The notes under the pieces were generated by a model. It worked only from the letters and a program-made list of their open reading frames with translations, was not told the DNA's origin and made no database searches. 64,000 nt of DNA, taken from assembly GCF_048403405.1 (NCBI RefSeq), contig NZ_CP183129.1, one strand, 5' to 3'. Both the position numbers and the translations under genes were made by a program. Shown here piece by piece: positions 17,572 to 57,735 of this stretch. Within the stretch, counting starts at the first letter, position 1. Each line of letters starts with the position of its first letter. This DNA is from Escherichia coli. Lineage in GTDB: Bacteria; Pseudomonadota; Gammaproteobacteria; Enterobacterales; Enterobacteriaceae.

Positions 17572-19344
17572 ATGACCATCACCACAGACACCACTCTTTT
17601 ACACGACCCGCGTCGTCAGGCGGCGCTGCTGTACTGGCAGGGGTTTTCCGTGCCGCAGATTGCCGCCATGTTGCAGATGAAACGCCCGACGGTGCAGAGC
17701 TGGAAACAGCGCGACGGCTGGGACAGCGTTGCCCCCATCAGCCGTGTCGAAATGAGTCTGGAAGCGCGGCTGACCCAGCTCATCATCAAACCGCAGAAAA
17801 CCGGCGGTGACTTCAAGGAAATTGACCTGCTGGGACGCCAGATTGAACGACTGGCACGGGTCAACCGCTACAGCCAGACCGGCAACGAGGCAGACCTTAA
17901 TCCGAACGTCGCTAACCGCAACAAAGGCGGGCGGCGCAAACCGAAAAAGAATTTTTTCAGTGACGAGGCCATCGAAAAGCTGGAGCAGATTTTCTTTGAG
18001 CAGTCTTTCGAATATCAGTTGCACTGGTATCGCGCCGGGCTTGAGCACCGCATCCGCGATATCCTGAAATCCCGCCAGATTGGCGCGACGTTTTATTTTT
18101 CCCGCGAGGCGCTGCTGCGCGCCCTGAAAACCGGTCATAACCAGATTTTTCTGTCGGCCAGTAAAACGCAGGCGTATGTGTTCCGCGAATACATCATCGC
18201 CTTTGCCCGTCTGGTTGACGTTGACCTGACCGGTGACCCGATTGTCCTGGGCAATAACGGCGCAAAACTGATTTTTCTCGGCACCAACTCCAACACCGCG
18301 CAGAGCCATAACGGCGACCTGTACGTCGACGAGATTTTCTGGATCCCGAATTTTCAGGTACTGCGTAAGGTGGCATCAGGTATGGCCTCACAGAGTCACC
18401 TGCGCTCGACCTATTTCTCCACCCCGTCCACGCTGGCACACGACGCCTACCCGTTCTGGTCGGGTGAACTGTTCAACCGGGGACGCGCCAGCGCCGCCGA
18501 ACGCGTGGAAATCGACGTCAGTCATAACGCCCTTGCCGGTGGGCTTCTCTGTGCGGACGGCCAGTGGCGACAGATTGTCACCATTGAGGACGCCCTGAAA
18601 GGCGGCTGCACGCTGTTCGACATTGAGCAGCTCAAACGCGAAAACAGCGCCGACGATTTTAAAAACCTGTTCATGTGTGAATTTGTTGACGACAAGGCGT
18701 CGGTGTTCCCGTTTGAGGAGCTGCAACGCTGCATGGTCGACACGCTGGAAGAATGGGAAGACTATGCGCCGTTTGCCGCAAATCCGTTCGGCTCCCGACC
18801 GGTATGGATTGGTTACGACCCGTCACACCGTGGCGACAGCGCAGGATGCGTGGTACTGGCACCGCCGGTGGTGGCCGGTGGCAAATTCAGGATCCTTGAG
18901 CGTCACCAGTGGAAAGGCATGGACTTTGCCACTCAGGCTGAATCCATCCGCAAACTCACCGAAAAATACAACGTCGAATACATCGGTATTGATGCCACCG
19001 GCCTCGGTGTCGGCGTGTTCCAGCTCGTGCGCTCGTTCTATCCCGCCGCGCGCGACATCCGCTACACGCCGGAAATGAAAACCGCAATGGTGCTCAAGGC
19101 AAAAGACGTCATCCGCCGTGGCTGTCTGGAATATGACGTCAGCGCCACCGACATCACCAGCTCGTTTATGGCTATCCGCAAGACCATGACCAGCAGCGGA
19201 CGCAGCGCCACCTATGAGGCCAGCCGCAGCGAGGAAGCCAGCCACGCCGACCTCGCCTGGGCGACCATGCACGCCCTGTTAAATGAGCCACTCACCGCCG
19301 GTATCAGCACCCCGCTGACATCCACCATTCTGGAGTTTTACTGA
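17572..19344 (+). CDS. P: Terminase large (ATPase) subunit gpP
   Basis: ATG at 17572 (MTITTDTTLL...), ~590 aa. Confidence 0.9.
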   Translation: MTITTDTTLLHDPRRQAALLYWQGFSVPQIAAMLQMKRPTVQSWKQRDGWDSVAPISRVEMSLEARLTQLIIKPQKTGGDFKEIDLLGRQIERLARVNRYSQTGNEADLNPNVANRNKGGRRKPKKNFFSDEAIEKLEQIFFEQSFEYQLHWYRAGLEHRIRDILKSRQIGATFYFSREALLRALKTGHNQIFLSASKTQAYVFREYIIAFARLVDVDLTGDPIVLGNNGAKLIFLGTNSNTAQSHNGDLYVDEIFWIPNFQVLRKVASGMASQSHLRSTYFSTPSTLAHDAYPFWSGELFNRGRASAAERVEIDVSHNALAGGLLCADGQWRQIVTIEDALKGGCTLFDIEQLKRENSADDFKNLFMCEFVDDKASVFPFEELQRCMVDTLEEWEDYAPFAANPFGSRPVWIGYDPSHRGDSAGCVVLAPPVVAGGKFRILERHQWKGMDFATQAESIRKLTEKYNVEYIGIDATGLGVGVFQLVRSFYPAARDIRYTPEMKTAMVLKAKDVIRRGCLEYDVSATDITSSFMAIRKTMTSSGRSATYEASRSEEASHADLAWATMHALLNEPLTAGISTPLTSTILEFY

Positions 19345-54236: not shown

Positions 54237-54489
54237 TTGTTTTACCGCCTGATGGGCGAAGAGAAAGAACGAGTAAAAGGTCGGTTTAGCCGGCCTTTTT
54301 ATTTTGTGATATGTATGAAGTACTTTGGAAGTATAAATCCATAACTTGTCTCGATGTAGATATACTGCACAACTTGTTTACAGTATGAGCAAACAATAAT
54401 TATCATTAAAATTCTTCTTGACCGTTTTACTCCAACTCCCTATAGTAGCGCCCCGTTGCCACCCATGAGGTTTGGCAGCAAAACAATTT

Positions 54490-54577
54490 GGTGAGGTGTC
54501 CGAGTGGCTGAAGGAGCACGCCTGGAAAGTGTGTATACGGCAACGTATCGGGGGTTCGAATCCCCCCCTCACCGCCA
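54490..54577 (+). tRNA. serW: tRNA-Ser (anticodon GGA), long variable arm
   Basis: GGTGAGGTGTCCGAGTGGCTGAAGGAGCACGCCTGGAAAGTGTGTATACGGCAACGTATCGGGGGTTCGAATCCCCCCCTCACCGCCA; T-loop GGTTCGAATCC; position between infA and clpA. Confidence 0.85.
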
Positions 54578-55115
54578 TATTTAAAGAAAAGCTCGTACGA
54601 AAGTGCGAGCTTTTTTTTTCGCATATTGCACTCCAGGGGGGATGAGAAGCCCCGACCGGGGTTCGACAACTGGCGCAGCCAGTTGGACAGACCACGAACA
54701 CAGTGAGTGGGCTGCCCGCAGGGCGAGCGAAGCGAGTCAATCCCCCCCTCACCGCCATATTCAAAGAAGAGCTCGTACGAAAGTGCGAGCTTTTTTTTCG
54801 CATATTGCACTCCAGGGGGGATGAGAAGCCCCGACCGGGGTTCGACAACTGGCGCAGCCAGTTGGACAGACCACGAACACAGTGAGTGGGCTGCCCGCAG
54901 GGCGAGCGAAGCGAGTCTATCCCCCCCTCACCGCCATATTTAAAGAAAAGCTCGTACGAAAGTGCGAGCTTTTTTTTCGCATATTGCACTCCAGGGGGGA
55001 TGAGAAGCCCCGACCGGGGTTCGACAACTGGCGCAGCCAGTTGGACAGACCACGAACGCAGTGAGTGGGCTGCCCGCAGGGCGAGCGAAGCGAGTCTATC
55101 CCCCCCTCACCGCCA
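54578..55115 (+). repeat. Three tandem direct repeats of ~179 bp (54578-54757, 54758-54936, 54937-55115) plus a degenerating fourth start; each unit has the terminator hairpin and ends with a copy of the tRNA-Ser 3-prime end (AATCCCCCCCTCACCGCCA)
   Basis: Near-identical units read directly from the sequence; occasional single-base differences between copies. Confidence 0.85.
54590..54620 (+). terminator. Terminator hairpin immediately after serW (first of four near-identical copies)
   Basis: AGCTCGTAC-GAAA-GTGCGAGCT followed by a T-run of 8-9. Confidence 0.7.
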
Positions 55116-55458
55116 TATTCAAAGAAGAGCTCGTACGAAAGTACGAGTTTTTTTTCGCATTTTATCTGCCTGTACGGCAGTAAACGGTATAAAAATCGGG
55201 TTTTTCTTTCGGCTGGCTTTCTAAGCTGCCTGTACGGCAGTGAACTCAAATACTACACGTCTAGCCCGTTGTTAATAAAGCAAAACCATCTCATTTTCCT
55301 GCTACCACCCTTTTTTATCCTTACCTTCCCGCAGCACTAATTATCAACAACTTACCATCATCATCAAAAAAAGGGTCTGAACCTCCTCCACCCCATAAAC
55401 AAAAAGTCCGTAACCTCTTTCGAGATTACGGACTTCACCAACCTACCTAACAATTAGA

Positions 55459-57735
55459 TTAATGCGCTGCTTCCGCCTTGTGCTTTTGTGCACTCTGGAA
55501 TCCATAAGTCAGCTCATTTTTCTCTTTATCCAGCGCAACCGTCACCTGACCGCCGTCCACCAGCGAACCAAACAACAGTTCGTTGGCGAGCGGTTTTTTC
55601 AGGTTGTCCTGGATGACACGCGCCATCGGACGTGCGCCCATTGCCCGGTCGTAACCTTTCTCGGCCAGCCAGTTACGCGCTTCCTGGCTCACTTCCAGAG
55701 AAACACCTTTCTGATCCAACTGAACCTGCAACTCGACGATGAATTTATCCACTACCTGATGGATCACGTCGGTTGACAGATGATCGAACCAGATAATGTT
55801 GTCGAGACGGTTACGAAACTCCGGCGTAAAGATCTTCTTGATCTCTTCCATCGCATCGGTGCTGTTGTCCTGGTGGATAAGACCAATCGATTTACGCTCA
55901 GTTTCTCGTACCCCAGCGTTGGTGGTCATCACCAATACCACGTTACGGAAGTCCGCTTTGCGTCCGTTGTTATCGGTCAGCGTACCGTTGTCCATCACCT
56001 GCAACAGAATATTGAACACGTCCGGGTGCGCTTTCTCGATTTCGTCCAGCAGCAGCACCGCATGTGGATGCTTGATGACCGCATCAGTCAGCAAACCGCC
56101 CTGATCAAAACCAACGTATCCCGGAGGCGCACCAATCAGACGGCTGACGGTATGGCGTTCCATATACTCGGACATATCAAAGCGCAGAAGCTCAATGCCC
56201 AAAGCTTTCGAAAGCTGTACCGTCACCTCTGTTTTCCCGACCCCGGTAGGGCCGGCAAACAGGAACGAACCGACCGGTTTATGTTCGTGACCTAAACCTG
56301 CACGCGCCATCTTAATGGCTTCAGTCAGCGCCTCGATGGCTTTATCCTGACCGAAGACCAGCATTTTCAGGCGATCGCCGAGGTTTTTCAGGGTATCGCG
56401 GTCACTCTGAGAAACACTCTTCTCTGGAATGCGCGCAATACGGGCCACCACGGACTCAATATCCGCCACATTAACGGTTTTCTTGCGTTTGCTTACCGGC
56501 ATCAGGCGTGCGCGAGCGCCCGCTTCGTCGATAACGTCAATGGCTTTATCCGGCAGATGACGATCGTTAATGTATTTCACCGCCAGCTCTACCGCTGCAC
56601 GCACCGCTTTTGCGGTATAACGCACGTCGTGGTGCGCTTCATACTTCGGTTTCAGGCCATTGATGATTTGAACAGTTTCTTCGATCGACGGTTCAGTAAT
56701 ATCAATTTTCTGGAAGCGACGCGCCAGAGCACGGTCTTTCTCGAAAATGTTGCTGAACTCCTGATAGGTTGTCGAACCAATTACGCGAATTTTACCGCTG
56801 GAGAGCAACGGTTTGATTAGGTTAGCCGCATCGACCTGACCACCAGACGCTGCACCCGCACCGATAATGGTGTGGATCTCATCAATAAACAGGATGCTGT
56901 TAGTGTCCTGCTCCAGCTGCTTGAGCAACGCTTTAAAACGTTTTTCAAAGTCGCCGCGATATTTTGTGCCCGCTAACAGAGAACCGATATCGAGAGAGTA
57001 AATCGTACAGTCAGCCATCACTTCCGGCACATCGCCCTGAACAATTCGCCAGGCAAGACCTTCTGCAATCGCGGTTTTACCGACACCAGATTCCCCCACC
57101 AGCAGCGGGTTGTTTTTACGGCGACGGCAGAGAACCTGAATAGCACGCTCCAGCTCCTTCTCACGACCAATCAGTGGGTCGATTCCGCCCACGCGCGCAA
57201 GCTGATTCAGGTTCGTCGTGAAATTCTCCATACGTTCCTCCCCACCAGCTTGTTCTTCGCTGTTTGGCTGGCTGCCAGGATCAGAAGACTGTGTCGGCTC
57301 GTCTTTACGCGTGCCATGAGAGATAAAGTTCACCACATCGAGACGGCTGACTTCATGTTTACGCAACAGATATGCCGCCTGCGACTCCTGTTCGCTAAAG
57401 ATAGCGACCAGAACGTTTGCACCGGTAACCTCATTGCGACCGGAGGACTGGACATGGAAGACCGCACGTTGCAGTACACGCTGAAAACTCAGCGTTGGCT
57501 GTGTGTCGCGCTCCTCTTCACTGGCAGGCAGAACGGGTGTGGTTTGTTCAATAAAGGCTTCCAGTTCCTGACGGAGCGCAACCAAATCCACAGAACACGC
57601 TTCCAGCGCCTCCCGGGCAGATGGGTTACTGAGCAGCGCCAGTAACAAGTGCTCGACGGTCATAAACTCATGACGGTGCTCGCGCGCTCTGGCGAAAGCC
57701 ATATTTAAACTGAGTTCCAGTTCTTGATTGAGCAT
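55459..57735 (-). CDS. clpA: ATP-dependent Clp protease ATPase subunit ClpA
   Basis: Start at [14 protein letters not shown] (758 aa); two AAA+ modules. Confidence 0.95.

Follow-up and report, generated by a model that had tools for sequence, protein, structure and literature searches.

Genomic context of the serW-clpA interval

The window, by which we mean the whole 64,000-nucleotide stretch of Escherichia coli DNA that was analysed, has the local gene order cydD-cydC-aat-infA-serW (plus strand), then clpA-clpS (minus strand), and its positions 54400-55500 are 100% identical to E. coli GN02461 (NZ_CP095533.1). Three RtT-like units lie downstream of serW (54578-55156). They score 43.9-45.1 bits against Rfam RF00391, at or just under the gathering score of 45, and every unit closes with a repeated copy of the serW 3' end and its terminator. 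The number of these units varies by strain, with none in K-12 C600, ST131 and O157:H7, one in 22AR0750, two in EC17CM6 and three in the window. On the other side of the interval, the clpA coding sequence ends just upstream of the clpA terminator.

A pair of identical 15-mers (CTGCCTGTACGGCAG) is found by exact search of the window at 55166-55180 and 55226-55240, in a gap of about 250 bp that is blank in the RefSeq annotation. The preliminary description was right about their location: on one side the serW-derived repeats stop at 55156, and on the other the stop codon and terminator of clpA take up 55403-55463. The pair is confirmed as real and non-random, far above chance. When up to two mismatches are allowed, the window contains three matches to the 15-mer compared with 0.11 expected, and in 100 dinucleotide-preserving shuffles the count never reached three. 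The third site (17626-17640, minus strand, CTGCCAGTACAGCAG, two mismatches) is taken as an unrelated chance occurrence. The features of the interval are these:

54490-54577, plus strand: tRNA-Ser(GGA) gene serW (ARAGORN)
54490-55156, plus strand: serW and the three RtT-like 179-bp tandem units (ARAGORN, Rfam, repeat families D1 and D2), which abut the terminal CRISPR repeat
55158-55185, minus strand: degenerate terminal repeat, GTTTACTGCCGTACAGGCAGATAAAATG, containing the 15-mer at 55166-55180
55186-55217, minus strand: single spacer of 32 nt, GCCAGCCGAAAGAAAAACCCGATTTTTATACC in the crRNA sense; anti-cas, derived from csy3 (cas7f)
55218-55245, minus strand: leader-proximal type I-F CRISPR repeat, perfect 28-mer GTTCACTGCCGTACAGGCAGCTTAGAAA, containing the 15-mer at 55226-55240
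55246-55402, minus strand: CRISPR leader, A+T-rich, about 155 nt, from the clpA terminator to the first repeat
55367-55340, minus strand: sigma-70-like site TTGATG-16-GATAAT within the leader, a consensus match only
55403-55436, minus strand: clpA intrinsic terminator with a 15-pair stem and T-run (inverted repeat I6), the upstream boundary of the leader

Anatomy of a two-repeat array

A repeat search stretches the 15-mer pair to 20 nt (family D3, 60 bp apart), and the complete repeat units behind the 15-mers measure 28 nt. The spacing of the 15-mers is therefore accounted for by one 28-nt repeat plus one 32-nt spacer, which is the unit of a type I-F array. The leader-proximal repeat matches the full Rfam CRISPR-DR4 model (RF01317) on the minus strand with 50.1 bits (E=1.6e-10), against a gathering score of 35, and when read from 55245 to 55218 it is an exact match to the I-F consensus GTTCACTGCCGYACAGGCAGCTTAGAAA. 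Its fold, at -8.6 kcal/mol, has a 5-nt loop closed by a stem of 5 bp. Of its 28 positions, the terminal repeat shares 22 with the consensus. Its first 20 nt, which include the hairpin, have one mismatch, its last 8 nt have diverged, and its CRISPR-DR4 score of 26.4 bits falls under the gathering score. Folding keeps its stem-loop, and the 5-bp stem and 5-nt loop earlier claimed for each 15-mer agree with the folds of both copies. No further repeat copy was found in the window at up to eight mismatches.

The pattern of decay in the terminal repeat follows the predicted boundary of the mature RNA. The 20 nt that would form the 3' end of a crRNA are kept with one mismatch, and the 8 nt that would fall outside it are lost. 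In the GN04979 locus described below, each of the two cas-linked arrays ends in a repeat that has decayed in a like pattern. As an alternative origin for the terminal 8 nt, we considered a deletion junction with the DNA downstream of serW in a cas-positive strain; this found no support, as they are unlike the sequence after serW in GN04979.

The leader aligns over its full length with the cas-linked leaders of GN04979 and B7A and with those of other orphan arrays. Together with the orientation of the Rfam match, the degenerate repeat at the serW end and the sigma-70-like site, this conserved leader indicates that transcription would proceed on the minus strand from clpA toward serW.

Cas-linked relatives at the same locus

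Strain GN04979 (locus L001) carries cas6f-csy3-csy2-csy1-cas3f-cas1f and a 9-repeat array, annotated 'CRISPR', between serW and clpA, and it has a second array between infA and serW. The clpA-side repeats of this locus read TTTCTAAGCTGCCTGTACGGCAGTGAAC on the plus strand, and window positions 55218-55245 are the same 28-mer. All internal repeats of the L001 cas-linked arrays have exactly this perfect sequence. The period of the 9-repeat array is also 60 bp, here reduced to the minimal two repeats, and the sequence that follows the last L001 repeat toward clpA is that found in the window. Arrays annotated 'CRISPR' beside cas1f-cas3f-csy1-csy2-csy3-cas6f have the same 28-mer repeat in both GN04979 and B7A. 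Overall, about 4% of complete E. coli genomes have a full I-F cas operon at this place with longer arrays and the same leader.

Two peculiarities of these cas-positive strains were also observed. The I-F operon of GN04979 is complete except that csy2 (L001 4810-5733) carries an internal stop and is marked as a pseudogene, so the I-F system of this strain may be inactive. In B7A, an IS100 element (istA/istB; L009 6200-8001) lies between the infA-side array and serW, and IS100 in B7A is likewise mentioned in PMC3903273.

The 15-mers are the cores of a CRISPR repeat, a common and annotated repetitive element with a known role. This follows from their Rfam family (RF01317), from the 'CRISPR' annotation in strains with longer arrays and from the presence of the orphan array in the literature (PMC3903273; PMC8616872), and it is the outcome that the preliminary description had itself named as its refutation; the CRISPR identity had been missed there. 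A search of 100,044 species finds the 15-mer in arrays of 60-bp period in Photorhabdus, Serratia and Mixta; in the other taxa listed it is a singleton.

Spacer matches to I-F cas genes

The spacer matches csy3, which belongs to the I-F effector complex, in GN04979 (L001 3906-3937) with four mismatches. The I-F PAM, 5'-CC on the strand with the crRNA sequence, lies immediately 5' of this protospacer on the csy3 coding strand. By our own arithmetic, the chance that a 32-mer matches an 8-kb operon at four or fewer mismatches is about 1e-9. The mismatches fall at spacer positions 2, 5, 19 and 23 or at 5, 19, 26 and 29, depending on the E. coli csy3 allele group. Positions 5 and 2 (the latter for the main csy3 allele) are within the generally accepted I-F seed.

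A phage or plasmid origin of the spacer was considered and is unsupported, with no convincing match among viral contigs, phages or plasmids. A degenerate pattern scan of viral contigs returned 0 matches, and BLAST against phage genomes gave only partial matches of 22-25 nt (E >= 0.3). Among plasmids, BLAST found one good match only, with 93.8% identity, in the 4.9-Mb E. coli record NZ_CP134663.1. This record, filed under plasmids, is most likely a misfiled chromosome, and the match has no annotated feature and is presumably an orphan array.

The same kind of target recurs in other strains. The orphan arrays of LD22-1, K-12 C600, ST131, O157:H7, WP8-S18 and 22AR0750 together have eight spacers; every one of these has a match in cas1f, cas3f or csy3 of GN04979 at 1-2 mismatches, and CC adjoins each match. 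With the window included, the seven orphan arrays have nine spacers (seven distinct), and 9/9 match cas1f, cas3f or csy3 beside CC with 1-4 mismatches. When the 47 spacers of two cas-positive strains were compared with their own cas operon at up to eight mismatches, there were 0 matches.

The annotation of one of these orphan arrays deserves comment. In WP8-S18-ESBL-07 (NZ_AP022261.1), a 'hypothetical protein' (WP_012602745.1; L007 187-585) is annotated over a 4-repeat orphan I-F array in which 3/3 spacers match cas3f or cas1f. The annotation most likely reflects a false ORF prediction across CRISPR repeats.

Orphan status and prevalence

The serW-clpA interval of the window contains no cas gene. 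A tblastn search of the whole 64-kb window with six Cas-F protein queries gave nothing better than E = 0.049, and a complete type I-F system, with cas1f, cas2-3f, csy1, csy2, csy3 and cas6f adjacent, is absent from the locus and the window. The chromosome NZ_CP095533.1 has one place that matches the array. In a set of 5,426 complete E. coli genomes, the array is matched in 5,161 and unmatched in about 265, and the median number of places in a genome is one. The csy3 gene is found in 241 of these genomes at 243 places, all of which are chromosomal. From the single I-F repeat place on the chromosome and the wholly chromosomal distribution of csy3, we infer that I-F cas genes are absent elsewhere from the 5.07-Mb genome and its plasmids. 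By itself the array would be inert, since the locus has no I-F cas genes and the chromosome has no other I-F repeat.

Identity and proposed mechanism

The sequence features assemble into one structure. A 28-nt repeat, a spacer of about 32 nt, a leader with a degenerate repeat at the distal end and a PAM-flanked protospacer are those of a type I-F array; a single array between clpA and infA, without cas-F genes at the locus and with a spacer whose best match is an I-F cas gene, is what defines the orphan form. The feature is almost certainly the orphan type I-F array CRISPR4.1-2 of the CRISPR-III locus, composed of a leader, a perfect repeat, a 32-nt spacer and a degenerate repeat, with transcription predicted from the minus strand. 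The orphan CRISPR4.1-2 array of the E. coli CRISPR-III locus was reportedly described by Diez-Villasenor et al. in 2010. PMC3903273 gives the clpA-infA locus as CRISPR-III, with type-4 repeats, and CRISPR4.1-2 as the single array present when cas-F is absent. The orphan CRISPR4.1-2 anti-cas array is thus already known, and the present data reproduce published findings.

In RNA, the stem-loop of the repeat is the recognition hairpin of the Cas6f (Csy4) endoribonuclease. The enzyme binds this stem-loop and cuts at its 3' base, which leaves an 8-nt 5' handle. The earlier suggestion that the 15-mers are protein-binding sites may therefore stand in a loose sense, at the RNA level and by analogy with this established interaction; it does not stand for DNA operators.

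In the published model, if a complete I-F cas operon were to enter the cell, its Cas6f would be expected to cut the array transcript. The only mature crRNA that could result is CUUAGAAA followed by the spacer and GUUUACUGCCGUACAGGCAG, a product of 60 nt. The Csy complex and Cas2-3 would then be turned on the incoming csy3 gene. Destruction of the carrier DNA, or priming against it, would keep I-F immunity from being established. Transcription of the array and interference by it are proposed here from the literature, where they are reported for other orphan arrays. As Almendros et al. 2016 are summarized in section 20 of PMC8616872, a review from the same laboratory, anti-cas orphan arrays are constitutively expressed, and orphan arrays interfere with plasmids that carry I-F cas genes.

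Comparison with known systems

The array resembles CRISPR4.1-2 in its position between clpA and serW/infA, its 28-nt type-4 (I-F) repeat, its leader, its lack of cas-F genes and its PAM-adjacent match to an I-F cas gene. It departs from the common CRISPR4.1-2 form at the allele level only. The exact window spacer is found in 9 of the 5,426 E. coli genomes compared with 380 for the common anti-csy3 form, and relative to that form the window has two extra spacer substitutions and a terminal repeat that reads GTTTAC. In addition, three RtT-like units intervene between the array and serW in the window.

Cas-linked I-F arrays are known from E. coli (CRISPR4.1/4.2), from the 'Ypest' subtype of Yersinia and from Pseudomonas aeruginosa PA14, where they are processed by Csy4/Cas6f. 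The window array is like them in having a repeat with a hairpin, a 32-nt spacer, a leader and a degenerate terminal repeat. Unlike them, it has no adjacent cas genes and only one spacer, which is aimed at a gene of the system itself rather than at a phage or plasmid. Viruses and mobile elements carry mini-CRISPR arrays and solitary repeat units, presented in section 16 of PMC8616872; the window array shares with them a single spacer, a complete and a degenerate repeat and dependence on Cas proteins supplied in trans. It differs from these viral and mobile mini-arrays in its fixed chromosomal place, off any mobile element, in its vertical inheritance and in its target, a cas gene instead of a competitor virus.

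Probable drift of the window allele

The more common sister spacer (GCCAACCGAAAGAAAAACTCGATTTTTATACC) has two mismatches to csy3. Compared with each csy3 allele group, it shows two synonymous changes at third codon positions (2 and 23, or 26 and 29). With only synonymous third-position differences from csy3, the sister spacer looks like the original acquisition. The window spacer equals this form plus A5G, which is in the seed, and T19C. In csy3, T19C would mean a change from Leu to Pro, and for this reason the spacer itself is its most likely place of origin. This points to mutation of the spacer and hence to relaxed constraint. The terminal repeat of the window also has a private C>T change, which gives GTTTAC in place of GTTCAC.

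In an ungapped comparison with 22AR0750, from which EC17CM6 was left out on account of an indel, the array differs at 4/88 positions and the leader at 2/215 (Fisher p = 0.06). This difference in sequence divergence is suggestive of relaxed constraint on the array but is not significant. A change that breaks the stem of the terminal repeat (GGCAG>GACAG in the crRNA sense) occurs in K-12 C600, LD22-1 and 22AR0750 (L003 401-428, L004 341-368 and L008 401-428). The stem is intact in the window, ST131, O157:H7 and EC17CM6. As a consequence of the stem-breaking change, the two 15-mers of K-12 would not be identical.

Mismatches at seed positions 2 and/or 5 make direct interference by the window allele doubtful. 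Judged from the spacer sequence, its capacity for direct interference is probably weakened, and it may retain priming-type activity at best. The anti-cas activity seen for other orphan arrays may thus fail in this variant. One could go further and suppose that, within the small lineage represented by 9 of 5,426 genomes, the anti-csy3 spacer has mutated, in the seed and by a change that no functional csy3 allele could carry, to the point that the anti-cas 'vaccination' is decaying, and that these strains are again permissive for I-F systems or capable of priming only. We regard this extension as speculative and rather improbable.

Alternative explanations

The serious alternative concerns the function of the array rather than its identity. 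The array could be a non-functional fossil, left over from a deletion of the I-F cas genes and drifting neutrally, with a spacer that records the self-targeting that caused or accompanied the loss of cas. Several of the observations just described would fit this view, including the two private spacer substitutions (one of them non-synonymous in csy3), the private change in the terminal repeat, the divergence of the array relative to the leader (4/88 and 2/215 against 22AR0750; Fisher p = 0.06), the stem-breaking G>A in the terminal repeats of K-12, LD22-1 and 22AR0750, and the roughly 265 of 5,426 genomes that have no array match. However, 5,161 of 5,426 genomes keep both the perfect first repeat and the leader, which are near-invariant in alignment, though cas-F is present in only 241. 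Independent lineages also have different spacers, every one of which matches a cas-F gene with a PAM, and the expression of orphan arrays and their interference against I-F cas plasmids reported in PMC8616872 further argue against a relic. We consider a purely neutral fossil unlikely, while according it an appreciable chance of being correct.

A regulatory role for the hairpins is very improbable. The preliminary description had proposed protein-binding sites or small terminator-like hairpins, and the 15-mers could accordingly be pictured as operators of a dimeric regulator, or as small terminators, serving the convergent serW/RtT and clpA transcripts. They are perfect 5+5 palindromes in non-coding DNA between convergent units, and they fold stably. 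A terminator scan, however, calls sites at 55122-55155 (plus strand), 55147-55130 (minus strand) and 55436-55403 (minus strand) and none at either 15-mer on either strand. The true terminators lie outside the array: one closes the last RtT-like unit (55122-55155), the other clpA (55403-55436). Intrinsic termination at the 15-mers themselves was rejected; directly after the hairpins, where a terminator would have a T-run, the plus strand reads TAAACGG and TGAACTC, the minus strand CTTAGAAA and ATAAAATG. Moreover, the whole 28-nt CRISPR repeat is conserved, as is the 32-nt spacing. The 32 nt between the palindromes are wholly different from strain to strain yet always match cas-F genes, which does not suit an operator. 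What survives of the earlier interpretation is that the elements form hairpins, are non-coding and are not REP sequences; operators and terminators do not survive.

That the 15-mers are a dispersed extragenic repeat of the REP/BIME, ERIC or MITE kind is extremely improbable: they are palindromic, intergenic and locally present in more than one copy, but the array occupies one place on NZ_CP095533.1 with a median of one per E. coli genome, as the 'not REP' judgement had anticipated, and multi-copy cases are always arrays of 60-bp period.

Significance

As an orphan CRISPR4.1-2 array, the interval between serW and clpA gains an annotation in which the hairpins are recognised as a CRISPR mini-array and are not mistaken for regulatory sites. 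The survey opens no new question; it contributes numbers (5,161 of 5,426 genomes with I-F repeats and csy3 in 241) and a drifted anti-csy3 allele. The array is one more case of a published phenomenon, in which a host array is directed against the cas genes of a lost system and is thought to block its re-acquisition. If the anti-csy3 spacer is indeed decaying in the small lineage that carries it, then the drift of orphan-array spacers would provide a natural measure of the time over which selection against regaining an I-F system persists.
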